A stretch of DNA of 64,000 nt from Oscillospiraceae bacterium. GTDB lineage: Bacteria; Bacillota; Clostridia; Oscillospirales; CAG-272. The stretch lies in the NCBI GenBank assembly GCA_015065365.1, contig SVQL01000001.1, positions 2,355-66,354 on the forward strand, written 5' to 3'. The position numbers and the translations under genes were made by a program. Under the pieces are notes generated by a model. The model saw nothing but the letters and a program-made list of their open reading frames with translations. It did not search any database and was not told the DNA's origin. Positions 2,663 to 33,300 of the stretch are shown in pieces. Numbering within the stretch: the stretch's first letter is position 1; the number at the start of each line of letters is the position of its first letter.

Positions 2663-4111
2663 TTAGTCTAATGCTTCGATAGAATTAAACAGATTTTCAA
2701 TCTTGTTTTCGGTAGGCGTCTTAACGCCGTTGTACAATCCGGATATATCCTTAGTAGTATTAATGCTTTCAAGCAAAATCTTAGTCTTAAGATTTATCTG
2801 GCTTCCGTATACAAGACCGAAATCGAACACAAGGCTATTGATAACGACGTCTACCATTTCAGCGCAAACCTCGTCGTAGCTGCTCTTTACCTTACAAACG
2901 GTGTTGTAGTAGGTAGTCAGCGTAGTGTCCGAGGACTTCCACGACAAAACCTCTACCATAAACGCGGAGAAGTCAGCGTCTGCCGCGCAGGTAGGAATAC
3001 CGAAGGTCGCGCCGTAGGTATTGTCGTTAGTCGTATAATAGCGTCCCTGCTCTACGTCGTACATAGGATAAGGCAAGGGCGTATAAGAGAACTGTGCGTT
3101 CTCGCCCAAGCTTTCAATGGACGACAGCGAGGAAGCGTAGAAGAACGCTCTGCCGTCAAGGAAGGTATCGTGCGGGTCGTCGTAAGTACCAAACTTATTT
3201 CCACAGAAGGAAAGATCCTCGCTAAAGAGCTTTCTGAGCTCGGCGATACTGTTCATGGAATGCTCGTTAGCAACCTCAACTGACCAATTTTCTTCCTCGT
3301 CGAACGCAACTATCTTATTGTTAAGTCCGCTCCAGAAGGAGATCGGGAATTCCTTACCTCCCGCGACGAGTCCCCAGCTGTCGTCAAGGTCCATCTTGCC
3401 ATCTCCGCCGGGATCGCTCTTCGTATAGATAAGCATCTGCTCTATGGTCCACTGCTTGTCGCGAACCATCTGAACGATATCGGGATGCTGATTTTCAGAA
3501 CCGAGATCTCGGTTGTAGTACAAGGTGTTGATTCTTGCCTTGTCAACGAGTGAGAAGTCACTTACCATGTGGAACAGTCTGCCGCCGACTCTCATCGTCT
3601 CAAGAGTATCGGAGTCGTACCACTCGTTTGAAAAGTCTATATACGATACTGCGTCAAGGTCGTTCATATATCCGCTGGTAATTGCTGTTCCCATATAGTT
3701 GCGCGCCAAGAACGCCAAATCGTAGTCGTAATCGTCAGCGAGTATAACGTTTTTAAGCGCCTCCAGACCGTCGGCATCCTCCGTGTGGCTATCATCAACC
3801 GTAATAGTTACGTTGTAATACTCCTCGATCCAGTTGTTTCTGTGGTAAACGGTATCTGACATTATATCTCCGCCGAGCTCGCCAACAAGCTCAAAATTAG
3901 GCTCGTAGGGGTTGTTCAGAGCGAGAATATTAAAGTTTCTTCCGCCCCAGTCGTAGTGAGGAACGGGATCGGTAGCCGCTTCTTCGACGAGTCCCTGGGT
4001 TTCCGTTTCCTCGGGCTCGTCAACCGTACACGAAACGAAGGTCGTAAGTAAAAGCAACAGTGCAAGAAGCAAGCTGCCTATCTTTAAAAGCTTACTTTTT
4101 AAATTAGTCAT
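2663..4111 (-). CDS. Extracellular solute-binding lipoprotein (sugar-type ABC SBP), orphan
   Basis: Lipobox LLLLLTTFVSC. ~480-aa architecture and motifs (VGGRLFHMVSDFSL...LYYNRDL) typical of Firmicute family-1 SBPs. Its start overlaps the upstream stop by 8 nt (ATGACTAA). No permease or ATPase genes anywhere in the locus. Confidence 0.55.
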   Translation of the reverse strand: MTNLKSKLLKIGSLLLALLLLLTTFVSCTVDEPEETETQGLVEEAATDPVPHYDWGGRNFNILALNNPYEPNFELVGELGGDIMSDTVYHRNNWIEEYYNVTITVDDSHTEDADGLEALKNVILADDYDYDLAFLARNYMGTAITSGYMNDLDAVSYIDFSNEWYDSDTLETMRVGGRLFHMVSDFSLVDKARINTLYYNRDLGSENQHPDIVQMVRDKQWTIEQMLIYTKSDPGGDGKMDLDDSWGLVAGGKEFPISFWSGLNNKIVAFDEEENWSVEVANEHSMNSIAELRKLFSEDLSFCGNKFGTYDDPHDTFLDGRAFFYASSLSSIESLGENAQFSYTPLPYPMYDVEQGRYYTTNDNTYGATFGIPTCAADADFSAFMVEVLSWKSSDTTLTTYYNTVCKVKSSYDEVCAEMVDVVINSLVFDFGLVYGSQINLKTKILLESINTTKDISGLYNGVKTPTENKIENLFNSIEALD

Positions 4112-5879
4112 CTTTTCTTCTCCTTGAGGTTAAACCAACGACGCCTATTGCAGAAGCCATAACCATAGCCGCGCCGCACAGTCCGATAGAGCTGCCGCAG
4201 CCGCCCTTAGGCGCCTCGGTCTCGGGAGCGGGAGCAGCCTCGGTGTCCTTATTATCCTCTACCAATACGGGAGGCTTGTTTTGGGGCTTGGAGGATCCGC
4301 CGTCATCATTTTCGTTCTCGTTGCCGTCGTCCTCGGGAATGTCCATAGGAGGAGCCGCTTCATTTTCAGCAGCTATGAGAGCAACACCCTTGTATACGTT
4401 AAGGTCACTTACGGTTACTTCGGTCACGAAATACGAATAGAAGTAAATTCCAAGATAATCTCTAAAGAATACGGAAGGATCTTCAACAGGGCTGTACTGC
4501 TCGATAAGAAGCCATCTGCCCTCGGAGTCCTTTACGTACAAAGCGATCGTGGTATTATCGCCGTTGATCTCCATAGCGTACTCCTGAACGGAAGGATAGT
4601 TCTCCGTTCCGCCGTCGTATCCGGGAACGTAATCGCTAGTAAGCGTAGAGTAATCAACGTGAGAGTATCCGCTTACCGCGTTACCGTTTCTCTGCGGTCT
4701 TCCCTTGTTAGCATAGAAGTATCCGCCGTAGACACCGTCGATGAGCAATCCAAGCGGAACGTTGCTCGTACGGGTCATAGTAAACTTAACGGTGTAAGAA
4801 TATCCTGCGCCGAGAGGAAGTCCCTCGATGTCTGCGCCCCAAGCGGCGTTTTTCTTTTCGGTAACGCCTTCCTCGCCCGTAGGTCTTTCAGTAACCCTAA
4901 TGGTTACCTTGCCTGCGTCCTCGGAATCAACGTTTGCGGTGATATTATCGCAAGGCCACTCCCAACCTGCGTTTGCAGCAGCGGCTGCGTTGCTGGGCTT
5001 GAAGCAATCGTCAGCTCCGCTGAAGTCAGCAGAGTAAAGAAGTCCGCCCTCTTCAACTCCGTCCCACAAAGCCGTTGAGATTTCGGGTTCTTCGCCTTCA
5101 CCCTCGCCTTCACCCTCGCCACCTGCGGGAGGAGTAACGGCAGCATTTTCATTAGCTACAACCGATATGCCCTTGTATACGCATACGTCGCTAACGGTTG
5201 CTTCAGTTACGTAATACGAATAGAAATATAATCCAAGACGGTCTCTGAAAAATTCGGGCGGATCCTCCTTGGGAGTACCATCGTCTATCTTGCTCCATTT
5301 GCCGTCCTCGCCCTTTACGTACAAAGCAAACGTCGTATCGTCACCGTTTATCTCAATAACGTACTCCTGCTCTGTCTTTTCGGTATAATTAACCCAGCTA
5401 TGTCCTGTCAATGCGCTACCGTTTCTTTGAATTCGAGCCTTGTGTGCGTAGAAATAACCGCCGTGAGTGCCGTCAAACAGCAATCCGATAGGTTTTGCGT
5501 TATCTGCGCAGGAAACCTTGAACTTAATCGTATAGGAATATCCCTCGCCAAGAGGAAGATCGTCTACGTCCGCGCCCCAAGCAGTATTGTTCTGCGGTGT
5601 AACCTTAAAAGTCACTTTGCCGGAGTCCTCAGGATCAACCGTTGCGGTTATATTATCGCAAGCCCAGTTGTAGCCTGCGTTTGCGGCAGCAGTTTCGTTG
5701 CTGGGCTTGTAGCAGTCACCAGCGCCGCTAAAGTCAGCCTCGTAGAGAAGCGCTCCGTCCGCAGCAGCAGCGTAAATATCGTTCGTAGCCACGTCTGCAA
5801 ACGTCGCGATTGCCATGAAGGGTACGGTCATCATCAAGACCAATACCAATGCCAAAATTTTTTTCATTGTATTTTTCAT
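4104..5879 (-). CDS. Secreted protein with two lectin-like repeats and a C-terminal GGCG-helix-RRRKDD anchor/sorting signal
   Basis: Signal peptide MKNTMKKILALVLVLMMTVPFMAIATFA. Two ~230-aa internal repeats (LLYEADFSGAGDCYKPSN... and LLYSADFSGADDCFKPSN...), each ending VSDxxVYKG, joined by a (GE)n linker. The tail is KGGCGSSIGLCGAAMVMASAIGVVGLTSRRRKDD. Confidence 0.75.
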   Translation of the reverse strand: MKNTMKKILALVLVLMMTVPFMAIATFADVATNDIYAAAADGALLYEADFSGAGDCYKPSNETAAANAGYNWACDNITATVDPEDSGKVTFKVTPQNNTAWGADVDDLPLGEGYSYTIKFKVSCADNAKPIGLLFDGTHGGYFYAHKARIQRNGSALTGHSWVNYTEKTEQEYVIEINGDDTTFALYVKGEDGKWSKIDDGTPKEDPPEFFRDRLGLYFYSYYVTEATVSDVCVYKGISVVANENAAVTPPAGGEGEGEGEGEEPEISTALWDGVEEGGLLYSADFSGADDCFKPSNAAAAANAGWEWPCDNITANVDSEDAGKVTIRVTERPTGEEGVTEKKNAAWGADIEGLPLGAGYSYTVKFTMTRTSNVPLGLLIDGVYGGYFYANKGRPQRNGNAVSGYSHVDYSTLTSDYVPGYDGGTENYPSVQEYAMEINGDNTTIALYVKDSEGRWLLIEQYSPVEDPSVFFRDYLGIYFYSYFVTEVTVSDLNVYKGVALIAAENEAAPPMDIPEDDGNENENDDGGSSKPQNKPPVLVEDNKDTEAAPAPETEAPKGGCGSSIGLCGAAMVMASAIGVVGLTSRRRKDD

Positions 5880-5921
5880 AAAAAGCCTCCTTGTTTTTTT
5901 GAAAAAAATTTTTAATGCTTT

Positions 5922-29538: not shown

Positions 29539-30810
29539 TCAATATATATCGACTTTAGCGAGAACGGGTAGATGGTCTGAGGGATATTTGCCGTTTTTAA
29601 TATTATTTACGACGGTATAATATCTGGTGTATACTGTATCGGTTGTAACGAAAATATAATCGAAAACGTAGGGGTGTCTTTTAGTAAAATTGCCTTCTAT
29701 CAAGGTAGGTCCCGTATCTCCTTTGACCTTCGCAACCTTTGAGGTCATGCCAAAATTCGGATTATCCCCCATAAAGTCGAGAAGAGCACTGCCGCTCACG
29801 GTCGTAGTAGTATTAAAGTCACCGAGAACTATAACGGGAAGATCGTCCTTGTTAACCTTCTTGATAAGCGCCGCAAGCGCGTCTATCTGCTTAACTCTGA
29901 CTTCCTCAGTTGCCCGATAATCGAGGTGTGTATTGATGAAAAGGAATTGCTTTCCCGTTTTATTTTCTTCAAGAACGACGTAAGTCATGGTACGGTATTG
30001 GTTTGAGCCCTCGTATTTTGATTTCCTCTCGGGAGTATCGCTGAGGAAATAGTATCCCTTTCGCTTAACGGTAAATCTATCCTTTTTCCAATAGATATGG
30101 TTGCCCTCGTCAATGTCTCCCTTATAAAGGTCGTAGGTTTTGAGGTTTTCAATAAAGTATTTGCTATGCCCCGTACCGTCCTCCTGAGTTCCGAGAACGT
30201 CTACGTCATTCTCAAGAATAGTTGTAACCATTCTAAGTCTGCAATTTGACTCTCTGCCCTCTTTATTCATATCAAAGAGAATATTATAGGTCATCACGTT
30301 CAAGGAAGGACTGTTCAGATCTTGAATTTCATATCCCGATATTGAAATTTCCTTGCTTTCCTCGTCTCCCGTTGCTTTTGCAAGAAATGCGTCGATAACC
30401 TGACAAAGAGCGCTGTAATTCGCGCCCAACAAAACTATCTTTTTGCCGGTAACGCCGATCAAGCCGCTTTGATTTTGCGCGTACGCCGCCGCAATAGCCT
30501 CGTCGTCCCCATCAAGACCTATCAAAATCTCAGGGCGGTCTTCATTTGAGAGCTCCACCTCAAGGGTAGTGCCATAAAGCGCCTCCAGCTTTTTGTTCAA
30601 ATATACGAACGCCCTTCCTGATCCGGTAATGGCGCTGTTTGAGCATACGACCGTATAGTCCTTCAAGGCAACGCCGTTGATAATCAGCGGACCAGTCACC
30701 GTCGGCGCCTGAGTTTCGGTTTCCTCCGTATTGCCGTTGTTACAGCCAAGAACTGCGGGCAAAAGCATAATCAATGCCAACAAAAAGCTTAAAAATCTTA
30801 TTTTTCTCAT
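29539..30810 (-). CDS. EEP family lipoprotein (intact paralogue of 41..1350)
   Basis: Lipobox LLPAVLGC. ~170-aa N-terminal domain shared with 41..1350 (…LCQVIDAFLAKAT). EEP motifs VMTYNIL, LGTQED, INTHLDY, LGDFNT, FDYIFVT and PSDHLPVL. Confidence 0.85.
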   Translation of the reverse strand: MRKIRFLSFLLALIMLLPAVLGCNNGNTEETETQAPTVTGPLIINGVALKDYTVVCSNSAITGSGRAFVYLNKKLEALYGTTLEVELSNEDRPEILIGLDGDDEAIAAAYAQNQSGLIGVTGKKIVLLGANYSALCQVIDAFLAKATGDEESKEISISGYEIQDLNSPSLNVMTYNILFDMNKEGRESNCRLRMVTTILENDVDVLGTQEDGTGHSKYFIENLKTYDLYKGDIDEGNHIYWKKDRFTVKRKGYYFLSDTPERKSKYEGSNQYRTMTYVVLEENKTGKQFLFINTHLDYRATEEVRVKQIDALAALIKKVNKDDLPVIVLGDFNTTTTVSGSALLDFMGDNPNFGMTSKVAKVKGDTGPTLIEGNFTKRHPYVFDYIFVTTDTVYTRYYTVVNNIKNGKYPSDHLPVLAKVDIY

Positions 30811-30866: not shown

Positions 30867-31004
30867 CGTCCGTTCCTGCGGCTGAATAATTTTCGAATTT
30901 TAACTTAAGCGGTATTTTCAATTCAAGGTTATAAATAAAATAATCGTTCTGTATTCATTACGGTATATTGGGGTGTTGTTCTAACGTTAAGTAAAATTAA
31001 ACAA

Positions 31005-31037
31005 CTGCACAAGCCCGTCAAAGACGGACTTGTGCAG
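31005..31037 (-). terminator. Rho-independent terminator after the GGCG-tail gene; copy of hairpin 2616..2648
   Basis: CTGCACAAGCCCGTC aaa GACGGACTTGTGCAG (15-bp stem, one mismatch). On the minus strand it is followed by TTGTTTAATTTT. Confidence 0.55.
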
Positions 31038-31131
31038 CATTCTGTAGCTATTAGTCTAATAGCATATCACACGTCACGAACTGTTGACATGTTTTAAAAC
31101 GTATTCAAAATATATTGCGAAGTTTTTTTAA

Positions 31132-32274
31132 TCAGTCTTCTTTTCTCTTGATTACGAGAGCCGCGCCGGAAGCGAGTGCTATCATAGCAACGCCTGCAAT
31201 TCCGATAGAGCCGCCGCATCCGCCTGCAGCTGCCTCAGTCTCGGGAGCAGGAGCAGCATCGGTGTTAGCCTCAGTATTTGCGTCGGTTTCGGGAGTCGTG
31301 TTGGTGTTGTTATTCTCGTTGTTATTCTCGTTGTTATTCTCGTTGTTCTCGCCGTTGTTCTCATTGCCGTTCTCCTCGCCGCCTTCTTCGCCGGCAGAGG
31401 GTACGTCTAATTCGGGAGCAGCAAGCTCGTGCTCGGTAACTGCAAGTCCCTTGTATACACTAACGTTGTGAACCTCCATAGTAAGGAACTGCTCGGGGGT
31501 AACGTTGTCGCGTCCGAAACGGATAACGTATTCCCAGTTATCGTAAGCCCAACCGTGGCTCTCCTTAATCATCTGTGCGTCAACAGGCTCATCTTCCATC
31601 GAGAAGATCAATTCCCATGCGCCGTCCTTAACGACGTAAACATTATAAACGGTAATGTTATATACGAATCCAGCAGTGGTTTCGGTATTCATAGCGCCTT
31701 CGGGATGCTCACCGGTACCCTCGTCCTTGATTTCGATAGCGTAGGTCTGGGTCAAAGCAGCGTCACCGGTAGGTCCGTCGTATTCAACCGTAAACTTGGT
31801 GCTATCGTATTTTCCGCCCGCGTTTACAACGTAGGACAGGGTGTTCTTACCGGGAGTAAAGAAGAAGCCGGTTCTCCAGTCGGGATAGTATCCTATCGCC
31901 TGATTTTCATCCTCAGCGCTGAGAGTGAATACGGTGGTATAAGCGCTCTGGTGCATAGTGAATCCACTACCGGGCAAACGTCCGCCGTAACCACTTGTGT
32001 GACCCTCGTTTTTGACATCAGTCTGGGGAATGTAGGTAAAGGACATTCCGTCCTCTGAGACCTCAACGTTAGCGCCTGCCCAAGTAGCCGTAACGCCGAA
32101 GTATTCCTTGTTGTTGAAGTCTACGTTAGCGATAAGCTCGCCGTCTTCAACTGCGCCGTAGTTTTCGGGGAGCGACACCTCGCTGTTCTCTGCGAATGCC
32201 GCGATTGCCATGAAGGGCACGGTCATAAGAGTAACCAATGCCAAAGCCAAAATTTTTTTCATTGTGTTTTTCAT
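31132..32274 (-). CDS. Secreted single-repeat lectin-like protein with N/E-rich linker and C-terminal GGCG-helix-KRKED signal
   Basis: Start at MKNTMKKILALALVTLMTVPFMAIAAFA (AGGAGG RBS; ORF-track start 32358 rejected). Repeat motifs YTTVFTLSAEDENQAIGYYPDWRTGFFF, QTYAIEIKDEG and VSVYKGLAV. The tail is AAGGCGGSIGIAGVAMIALASGAALVIKRKED. Confidence 0.8.
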   Translation of the reverse strand: MKNTMKKILALALVTLMTVPFMAIAAFAENSEVSLPENYGAVEDGELIANVDFNNKEYFGVTATWAGANVEVSEDGMSFTYIPQTDVKNEGHTSGYGGRLPGSGFTMHQSAYTTVFTLSAEDENQAIGYYPDWRTGFFFTPGKNTLSYVVNAGGKYDSTKFTVEYDGPTGDAALTQTYAIEIKDEGTGEHPEGAMNTETTAGFVYNITVYNVYVVKDGAWELIFSMEDEPVDAQMIKESHGWAYDNWEYVIRFGRDNVTPEQFLTMEVHNVSVYKGLAVTEHELAAPELDVPSAGEEGGEENGNENNGENNENNNENNNENNNTNTTPETDANTEANTDAAPAPETEAAAGGCGGSIGIAGVAMIALASGAALVIKRKED

Positions 32275-32320
32275 AAAAAACCTCCTTAAAATTTTATTGA
32301 AAAAAATTTGTTTACTGTTT

Positions 32321-32449
32321 TTAGAATGGGTCTTCCGCCCAGTTATCGAGACTGTCATTTCCGAATATTACGGAAAATATCATAATATCCTTCGTATCAA
32401 CAGTAACGACTCTCATTTCGGGAGAAACGTATTTTTTATTGCTTTTCAT
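32321..32449 (-). CDS. Conserved 42-aa micro-protein (MKSNKKYVSPEMRVVTVDTKDIMIFSVIFGNDSLDNWAEDPF), paralogue of 5922..6047
   Basis: ATG at 32449 with AGGAGG 9 nt upstream; TAA at 32321-32323. Same position between the EEP gene and the GGCG-tail gene as in locus A. Confidence 0.6.
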   Translation of the reverse strand: MKSNKKYVSPEMRVVTVDTKDIMIFSVIFGNDSLDNWAEDPF

Positions 32450-32463
32450 TTTTTCATTCCTCC

Positions 32464-33300
32464 TTATCTGTAATAAATTAACTTTGCTATAACCGGAAGG
32501 TGGTCTGACGGATACGGTGTGTAATCAGCATCGTCGTACTCATTGTTTATTACCGAGTATTCAACAGCTTGCATATTTTCATCGGTGTAAAGGATATAAT
32601 CAAATATCCATTCTTCACGCTTTTCGTGCTCCGTTATAAGCGTACCGCCCATATCATGCTTGATAATTGCACTATCCTCAGACGTAAGTAGGCCGCTGTT
32701 ACCAGTAAGCTCAGCAATAGTCTGCTTTCCGGGAGTAGCATTCATATCTCCCATAACTATCTGATTGGAATAGTCAGCTGACATATTGTCAAGCCATCTG
32801 CGCAGAAGTCTCGTCTGATAGTCACGAAGAAGCTCATCATCGGGGTAATTAGAGCCTGTACCCTTTCCATAATGCAAATGAGTGTTTACGACGAGATACT
32901 GTACACCCTTATCATCTTCCAAAACCACGTATCGGAAGAATCTGCCTATTTCGTCAAAGACGGATATGTCAAAGTTACCCTTAGTATCCAAGGTTAAATC
33001 CGCGCCTTTAGCGTCTACGTCCTTATACTCCTTTGCAAGCTTTTTGTAGTACCCTATGCCGCTGGTGACAAGCGTAAATTTATCGCTCTTGTAGTAGATT
33101 GCAAGATTCTCATTTCCGTTTCCGCCGGACTTGTAGCAAGAATATCCTTTAAGCGCCGACAAATAACTGTCCCAATCACTGTCGTCCTCTTGCAATCCGA
33201 GCACATCGGGATTGAACGTCATAATAGTATCTACAACCTTGGAAGGATCTCTGCCCTCCCAACCGTTATCATCGTCCTTGCCCTCGATATTATAGGTCAT
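32464..33300 (-). CDS. EEP phosphoesterase domain ORF, probably the C-terminal part of a lectin-EEP fusion reached by a -1 shift from 33306..36830
   Basis: Motifs MTYNIE, LGLQED, VNTHLHYG, MGDMNAT, FDYILYT and PSDHLPVI. No RBS or signal peptide of its own. The frame is open upstream back to the T7 run and aligns with the A-locus giant (…FF…SLTAMTYNIEGKDDD vs …FF…YINVLSYNLEYKGDD). Confidence 0.75.
   Translation of the reverse strand: MTYNIEGKDDDNGWEGRDPSKVVDTIMTFNPDVLGLQEDDSDWDSYLSALKGYSCYKSGGNGNENLAIYYKSDKFTLVTSGIGYYKKLAKEYKDVDAKGADLTLDTKGNFDISVFDEIGRFFRYVVLEDDKGVQYLVVNTHLHYGKGTGSNYPDDELLRDYQTRLLRRWLDNMSADYSNQIVMGDMNATPGKQTIAELTGNSGLLTSEDSAIIKHDMGGTLITEHEKREEWIFDYILYTDENMQAVEYSVINNEYDDADYTPYPSDHLPVIAKLIYYR

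Follow-up and report, generated by a model that had tools for sequence, protein, structure and literature searches.

A Gly-Cys C-terminal signal of uncultured gut and rumen Clostridia and its probable processing by a coupled Lgt paralogue and CPBP protease

The window considered here, a stretch of 64,000 nucleotides from an Oscillospiraceae bacterium (assembly GCA_015065365.1, contig SVQL01000001.1, forward-strand positions 2,355 to 66,354), carries on its minus strand two genes, designated locus A and locus B, whose secreted products end in a Gly-Cys motif, a hydrophobic helix and a short basic segment. The principal subject is the locus-B gene (31132..32274, minus strand), which encodes a protein of 380 amino acids (aa). 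The last ~30 residues of this protein probably constitute a tripartite C-terminal sorting signal built around an invariant Gly-Cys, to be followed by lipid attachment through a divergent paralogue of Lgt, termed lgt2, and by trimming through a CPBP/Rce1-type protease. This signal is a specific feature of certain uncultured Clostridia from gut and rumen. The open reading frame (ORF) extends over 31132..32358; its likely start is at 32274 (MKNTMKKILALALV...; MKNTMKKIL...), and its stop codon occupies 31132-31134. The layout of the protein was drawn from the ORF and its translation, nine orthologues (P0001-P0007, P0011 and P0019), and an AlphaFold2 (AF2) model made from the orthologue alignment.

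The model resolves four parts. An N-terminal Sec (type I) signal peptide without a lipobox Cys, MKNTMKKILALALVTLMTVPFMAIAAFA (32191..32274), is modelled as a helix over residues 2-27 and leads into a beta-sandwich domain of the concanavalin-A-like lectin jelly-roll type at residues ~40-290 (31405..32157), with strands over residues 47-275 and pLDDT values up to 95. This is followed by an acidic, Asn/Glu/Thr/Pro-rich linker (residues 292-349; 31228..31401) with AAPAPETEAA at its end, and the model is disordered here and onward to residue 356 (pLDDT ~25-34). The protein then closes with the stretch TDAAPAPETEAAAGGCGGSIGIAGVAMIALASGAALVIKRKED, directly followed by the stop codon; its C-terminus reads AAAGGCGGSIGIAGVAMIALASGAALVIKRKED. 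The sequence-only reading had located the GGCG codons at 31213-31224, and a codon count back from the stop agrees, giving G351-G352-C353-G354. Together with an alignment of 39 tails, this count delimits the signature motif as G351-G-C353-G-G-S-I-G358 (31201..31224). A 22-residue hydrophobic transmembrane segment spans G354-I375 (31150..31215), modelled as a terminal helix over residues 357-375 with Cys353 predicted four residues ahead of it, and the cytoplasmic basic/acidic end K-R-K-E-D occupies 31135..31149; all of these features lie on the minus strand. Foldseek matches of the domain are generic lectin and jelly-roll folds (Emp47p CRD, GH131, calreticulin, legume-lectin-like) at 7-14% identity. 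Further matches, to the lectin-like subdomain of clostridial neurotoxin binding domains, were rejected as generic jelly-roll likeness without functional implication (7-9% identity, TM 0.26-0.32). Scans of Pfam and NCBIfam with the whole proteins and with the tails alone gave no match above threshold to any model, leaving the tail without a family, and the isolated tail searched against NCBIfam (release 20) at E<=10 matched no CTERM model of any kind, TIGR03901, JDVT-, Synerg-, CGP- and Firmicu-CTERM included. About 95 nucleotides past the stop codon, a strong intrinsic-terminator-like hairpin (31004..31038, minus strand; 16-bp stem and T-rich run) stands between the tail gene and an EEP lipoprotein gene at 29539..30810.

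Seven ORFs in the 1.75-Mb genome share one architecture, which is more than chance would give: a Sec signal peptide, an acidic linker, Gly-Cys, ~22 hydrophobic residues and a basic end (contigs C69, C89 and C114, and two each on C15 and C72). All seven signal peptides are of type I (…AAFA/ENS), with neither Cys nor lipobox. Judged by eye, Gly-Cys is present in all seven ORFs with signal peptide, linker and hydrophobic/basic tail, and the other pattern matches in the genome lack a linker and resemble membrane proteins or noise. A 36-position profile built from 15 tails and searched against 1.84 billion representative proteins found at least 240 protein clusters at E<=0.001; among the 150 matches listed, every match stops within five residues of the C-terminus. 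Gly-Cys stands in register in all 41 sequences read, attached to unrelated N-terminal domains. The consensus from 39 tails is [K/E]-G-G-C-G-S-x-[I/V]-G followed by a KKKED-type end, with Gly at +1, Ser at +2, Ile/Val at +4 and Gly at +5 predominant relative to the Cys; Gly-Cys itself is invariant in these tails, which were chosen for having it, such that the independent information resides in the flanking positions and the spacing. The distance from Cys to the first Lys or Arg is 21-24 residues in all 39 tails, and the number of residues past the Cys is 24-30 in the family and 27 in the locus-B protein. Four short family members (P0032, P0034, P0054 and P0057; 66-113 aa) combine an N-terminal lipobox (...LAACG, ...LLAGCA) with a C-terminal Gly-Cys tail and have only a Thr/Pro/Ala linker in between. 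Lipidation at both ends, if it occurs, would anchor these peptides twice, and some of the four may be fragments of gene calling.

Selection on the tail is apparent at two depths. Mean pairwise identity in a non-redundant set of the nine orthologues is 0.56 for the signal peptide, 0.43 for the domain, 0.23 for the linker, which is the least conserved region, and 0.46 for the whole tail. Within the tail the values are 0.54 for the motif, 0.34 for the helix core and 0.59 for the basic end, its best conserved part. Each of these lies well above the composition-shuffled expectation. The sequence-only reading had proposed this comparison in orthologues, tail against linker, as a check on its interpretation, which a tail changing at the rate of the linker would have refuted. 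The tail does not change that fast: its conservation is about that of the folded domain and double that of the linker. The paralogous locus-B tails on contigs C69 and C72 differ over their 30 codons by seven synonymous and no non-synonymous changes, while 19 of 25 codons differ in their linkers. Since the tails are identical over 30 residues despite seven synonymous changes and the linkers have diverged, the codon comparison indicates that these tails are under purifying selection and are not a very recent copy.

The residues directly ahead of the motif tell a separate story. The locus-A protein (4104..5879, minus strand) terminates in TEAAPAPETEAPKGGCGSSIGLCGAAMVMASAIGVVGLTSRRRKDD; its tail, the first instance in the window (4104..4235, minus strand; tail subtype A), is the best match to the tail profile at 61.6 bits. 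As the sequence-only reading had observed, AAPAPETEA is common to both loci, and locus A has two domain repeats to one in locus B. The nine AAPAPETEA codons differ between the loci by three synonymous changes. The further claim of a selective retention of some 20 residues around the Cys was overstated: past GGCG the transmembrane parts differ strongly, and the two tails belong to different helix subtypes. Moreover, neither the genome's five remaining tails nor the family consensus contains AAPAPETEA. Light on the shared segment is shed by a Logan contig (SRR22328599; L142) that encodes P0011, whose domain is 30-38% identical to those of the window proteins and whose last 57 residues match locus A at 56 positions. 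The contig was compared with window positions 3948-4278, 5806-5903, 32197-32295 and 32720-32946. Its DNA matches window 3948-4278 at 92% identity over a stretch that starts at the linker end and runs through the binding-lipoprotein gene downstream; the part of this stretch that begins with GGC-TGC and ends at the stop codon is 100% identical to locus A. It is a mosaic, resembling locus B upstream (EEP gene, micro-ORF) and locus A in the tail and the downstream binding-lipoprotein gene. Because this contig pairs a locus-A-like tail with a diverged domain, the linker end and tail are a cassette exchanged between genes, with recombination break-points that appear to fall in the low-complexity linker. 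AAPAPETEA travels with one such cassette and therefore marks shared ancestry or recombination, not a recognition site under selection; as part of the recognition motif it is ruled out by its absence from the other tails and the consensus together with the contig's cassette. A comparable pattern is seen at the opposite end of these genes: the ribosome-binding region and signal peptide (MKNTMKKILAL...) at window 32197-32295 and 5806-5903 are 80-82% identical in DNA to the Logan contig, the same signal peptide recurs ahead of unrelated domains (P0009, P0014), and both ends of the surface-protein genes behave as conserved cassettes.

The candidate processing enzymes are encoded on another contig of the same genome (G000), C20, where lgt2 (C20:10168-10959), the Lgt paralogue, is followed by a gene for a CPBP/Rce1-type protease (C20:10959-11774), one of three CPBP/Rce1-like genes in the genome. 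The lgt2 stop overlaps the protease start (TGATG), an arrangement of translational coupling. The genome also has a canonical Lgt (contig C23), scoring 245 bits to the 98 bits of lgt2. The protease matches Pfam PF02517 at 67.8 bits (cut-off 22.4) and keeps the catalytic motifs EExxxR, FxxxH and HxxxN/D, with E122, E123, R127, F156, H160, N163 and H204 invariant. A profile of lgt2 matches E. coli Lgt (5AZB) with E=2e-15, and lgt2 reaches 72 bits against TIGR00544 (cut-off 118.9); residues equivalent to Y26, R143, G154, Y235, R239 and E243 of the E. coli enzyme are retained. Among PDB sequences, neither the CPBP profile nor a single-sequence search with lgt2 found a match, and the literature, searched for a CPBP protease with a coupled Lgt paralogue, yielded nothing relevant.

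The case for linking this enzyme pair to the tails comes from their distribution in a phylogenetic profile over 401 genomes sampled from the order to which the window's genome belongs. An orthologue of the protease is present in eight genomes (at least 134 bits; next best 67), and lgt2 in exactly those eight (at least 366 bits; next best 168), its scores being inflated by a profile built from these same genomes, so that the informative part is the lack of any other strong match. Gly-Cys tails occur in all eight pair-bearing genomes, that of G291 being verified only at a lenient threshold, and in one of the 393 others (G370, 83% complete, a single tail); the tails of G291 and G370 were recovered by a lenient profile search and missed by the regular expression. 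The co-occurrence has a Fisher p of ~6e-16, or 4e-9 when collapsed to genera. In the genomes lacking the protease, profile matches that cover the motif positions proved on reading to be without the Cys, except in G370. The tails rejected in this way are Cys-less helix-plus-basic or sortase-type endings (PATGD, PKTGS, LPTTGG) in G335, G015, G245, G383, G158, G021, G122, G012, G136 and G396. The single tail of G370 (C39:6304-6390; L121/L136) closes a 659-aa open frame that ends in AKVGGCGSEISGVGYVAVALLGCAMLLKKKKEN, a Gly-Cys tail without an acidic linker. Within the six genomes of genus g85, only G168 has both enzymes and tails, and there three substrate genes, lgt2 and the protease gene form one cluster of ~5 kb (G168:C3:10616-14933), an indication that the entire cassette was transferred horizontally. 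The signal, conserved and under selection, is therefore strictly associated in the genomes with the enzyme pair.

Gene order points in the same direction. The lgt2 gene lies directly upstream of the protease gene in all eight genomes. The same order holds in 70 of the 77 loci that could be evaluated among 171 species-level genomes, all of which are metagenome-assembled and belong to uncultured Clostridia from gut, rumen or digester. A gene with a Gly-Cys tail adjoins the pair in five of seven related genomes and in 11 of 80 loci. The typical neighbour encodes a conserved 361-aa tail protein and ends a few bases before lgt2; in related genomes the substrate genes, lgt2 and the protease gene make up one operon of three to five genes. 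Two variations on this arrangement may be recorded. In G377, four tandem genes for secreted proteins lie directly downstream of the pair (contig C17, L035, 2106-7481), and their tails have no Cys and instead carry [ST]P(A/T)TGF, a helix and SKKRH or SKKRNG, resembling the PxTG signals of sortases. The same genome has three true Gly-Cys tails elsewhere, as well as two sortases; with PxTG-like tails following lgt2 and the protease gene, two kinds of C-terminal signal cluster at this enzyme locus. In a clade resembling 'Eubacterium sp. CAG:180' (L081, L089 and L095; ~4600-5770), the gene directly upstream of the protease is not lgt2 and encodes a 337-aa multi-pass membrane protein (a 393-aa ORF in L081) that by eye resembles WecA/MraY-type phosphosugar transferases, and an lgt2-like gene is found elsewhere in these genomes (215-225 bits).

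Tail conservation, the seven synonymous to zero non-synonymous changes, the fixed spacing, and the co-occurrence and synteny with the Lgt-paralogue/CPBP pair together support the conclusion of the sequence-only reading that the tail is a recognition motif and not merely an anchor, albeit on evidence other than AAPAPETEA, the argument from which fails. The pathway most compatible with these features would run as follows. The protein would be exported by Sec and lose its N-terminal signal peptide, after which the C-terminal helix would hold it transiently in the membrane, KRKED facing the inside and Cys353 lying at the membrane's outer face. Lgt2 would then attach a diacylglyceryl lipid to the Cys353 thiol, and the CPBP/Rce1-type glutamic intramembrane protease would cut just after the lipidated Cys and thereby remove the helix. 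Clostridia are monoderm, and the product would be a lectin-like domain on a disordered stalk of ~60 residues, held by a C-terminal lipid in the outer leaflet.

Several points weigh against this pathway. We infer from sequence that the Cys is lipidated, where the tail is cut and in what order this happens. A Cys placed N-terminal to an N-out/C-in helix reproduces a lipobox in mirror image. Two essential residues in the signature of Lgt, N146 and E151, are Cys in lgt2 (GRIGCxxxGCCxG, where the canonical Lgt of the same genome carries GRWGNFFNGEAHG), so that its chemistry may differ from diacylglyceryl transfer. The best NCBIfam matches of the protease are an ABC-permease/CPBP fusion model and then the myxosortase models, all sub-threshold, with the latter far below their cut-offs (MrtJ 29.1 bits against 75, Mrt_core 24.3 against 100, MrtS 20.2 against 130, MrtC 18.0 against 195). 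As to distribution, the lgt2 scores are inflated as stated, the eight positive genomes represent only five genera, making the profile partly phylogenetic, and the G370 tail, with no detectable CPBP orthologue or lgt2, is the only exception to the co-occurrence. In the genome of the window, the pair sits between pyrimidine and histidine genes and not beside any tail gene. Finally, seven to eight loci have the protease gene without an adjoining lgt2; in six of these eight an lgt2-like gene is found elsewhere in the genome, and the other two genomes have Lgt matches at the canonical level only.

Among the alternatives, the one that survives best, itself unlikely, holds that only one of the two steps takes place: either the protease sheds the protein without a lipid, or lgt2 lipidates it and the helix is kept, producing a double anchor with the CPBP protein as a non-proteolytic partner. 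A precedent for the latter is the CPBP-fold protein LnsB, which is non-catalytic in the N-acylation of S. aureus lipoproteins (PMC7387801), and the altered lgt2 signature and the protease loci without an adjacent lgt2 are both congruent with a single step. The protease here, unlike LnsB, keeps all its catalytic motifs invariant, and the coupling of lgt2 to it in 70 of the 77 loci argues that both act on the same substrate. Slightly less probable again is that the tail is a permanent transmembrane anchor, its Gly-Cys serving a disulfide between surface proteins or the packing of the helix, with the enzyme pair acting on other substrates. A hydrophobic segment with a positive-inside end would suffice for stable anchoring, and the remoteness of the pair from any tail gene in the window's genome, as well as the pairless tail of G370, fit this explanation; yet a plain anchor needs no invariant Gly-Cys at fixed spacing, nor does it account for tails in eight of eight pair-bearing genomes against one of 393 others, for G168 alone having both in genus g85, or for the recurrent operons of tail gene, lgt2 and protease gene.

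Sortases (PF04203) are encoded in 318 of the 401 genomes, six of the eight tail-bearing ones included, and do not track the tails; none was found in the window's genome (90% complete) or in G075 (98% complete). A mutual exclusion of sortase and Cys tail was considered and rejected, as six of the eight genomes have both. That the tail represents a variant of a signal for sortase, exosortase or rhombosortase is very improbable. In favour of it, the presence of sortases in those six genomes and weak, sub-threshold matches to the NPXTG (NF033846; 13.1 bits, cut-off 23.5) and LPXTG (TIGR01167; 11.1 bits, cut-off 15.9) models could be cited; but those alignments take in only the helix and basic end (profile positions 5-30 of TIGR01167 and 13-32 of NF033846) and no pentapeptide, no sortase was found in two tail-bearing genomes, and the exosortase/archaeosortase family (PF09721) was found in none of the eight, rhomboid proteases not having been searched for. 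Compared with lipidation by lgt2 followed by CPBP trimming, the permanent anchor, the single step and the non-proteolytic CPBP partner are less likely, since tails and enzyme pair co-occur strictly, the two enzyme genes are translationally coupled and the protease has its catalytic motifs intact.

A Cys-type CTERM signal with a CPBP protease is already known as a kind of system: such signals were predicted to be cut by CPBP proteases in 2023 (Haft, bioRxiv 10.1101/2023.06.07.544157), and one was shown experimentally to be so in 2025 (PMC11980579). Three things are new: the motif, its occurrence in Clostridia as hosts, and an Lgt paralogue coupled to the protease; NCBIfam release 20 and the searched literature contain none of the three. 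If the proposed pathway is true, Gram-positive gut bacteria would have one more way, independent of sortase, to attach proteins to their surface. The signal also serves as a rule by which the surface proteome of abundant uncultured rumen and gut Clostridia (lectin-like, glycan-harvesting and putative adhesin proteins) can be predicted from sequence. The operon of substrate, lgt2 and protease is a compact transferable set for a direct test in a laboratory host, and for annotation the alignments could yield three new models, one for the CTERM signal and two for enzyme subfamilies.

The tail invites comparison with several known systems, each of which shares part of its logic. Like LPXTG and NPXTG proteins, the present ones are Sec-exported surface proteins with a linker, a hydrophobic helix and a K/R-K-K-E-D end; unlike them, they have no pentapeptide, and their genome no sortase. 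In the eukaryotic and archaeal CAAX/Rce1 system, a lipid is likewise placed first on a Cys of the C-terminal region, and a CPBP-family enzyme then cuts after it (PMC11980579); there, three residues follow the Cys and the process is cytosolic, whereas here 27 residues including a transmembrane helix follow, and the protein is exported. The JDVT-, Synerg- and CGP-CTERM signals, which with MYXO-CTERM are the four Cys-type signals of the Haft preprint, in which Firmicutes, Clostridia and Lgt are not mentioned (10.1101/2023.06.07.544157), are also Cys-containing and paired with CPBP proteases, but have other motifs, belong to other lineages (Proteobacteria, Synergistetes, Thermococcales) and have models that find no match here. 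For JDVT-CTERM, the gene of the sorting enzyme MrtJ and that of its target are described as conserved neighbours (PMC11980579), an arrangement comparable to the operons of 361-aa protein, lgt2 and protease. The closest system is MYXO-CTERM with the myxosortase MrtX in Myxococcota (TIGR03901). Both signals follow a disordered linker and have three elements: a short motif whose Cys is invariant (generically GCGC in MYXO-CTERM, GGCG here), a helix that spans the membrane, and a cluster of basic residues. Both are carried by many unrelated secreted proteins per genome, and both have a cognate CPBP/Rce1-type glutamic intramembrane protease. They differ in that the present tail has no TIGR03901 match and its protease scores only 18-29 bits where the cut-offs are 75-195. 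Further differences are hosts not expected to have an outer membrane or a type II secretion step, a KKKED-like basic end as in Gram-positive LPXTG tails instead of an Arg-rich one, and a dedicated Lgt paralogue coupled to the protease. In MYXO-CTERM, cleavage by MrtX needs the Cys, as tested on TraA by expression and immunoblot or mass spectrometry, and an 'Lgt-like' acyltransferase is postulated as the lipidating enzyme, with the housekeeping Lgt as leading candidate (PMC11980579). By analogy, the lipidation-then-trimming sequence envisaged here would mirror the model proposed for that system. The lipoprotein pathway of lipobox, Lgt and LspA offers a second parallel, in that an Lgt-family enzyme is involved, a Gly stands just before the Cys at the outer helix end, and a dedicated membrane protease removes the helix; the present signal is distinguished from it by a C-terminal Cys, a reversed helix, no Leu at -3, a CPBP enzyme in place of LspA, and the two Cys substitutions in lgt2. 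Conceivably, and with about even chances, the coupled Lgt paralogue is the enzyme class that lipidates the invariant Cys of Cys-type C-terminal signals, acting in inverted topology (N-out/C-in) and giving rise in these Clostridia to C-terminally diacylglycerylated surface proteins by an Lgt2-then-CPBP pathway that mirrors the classical lipoprotein pathway.

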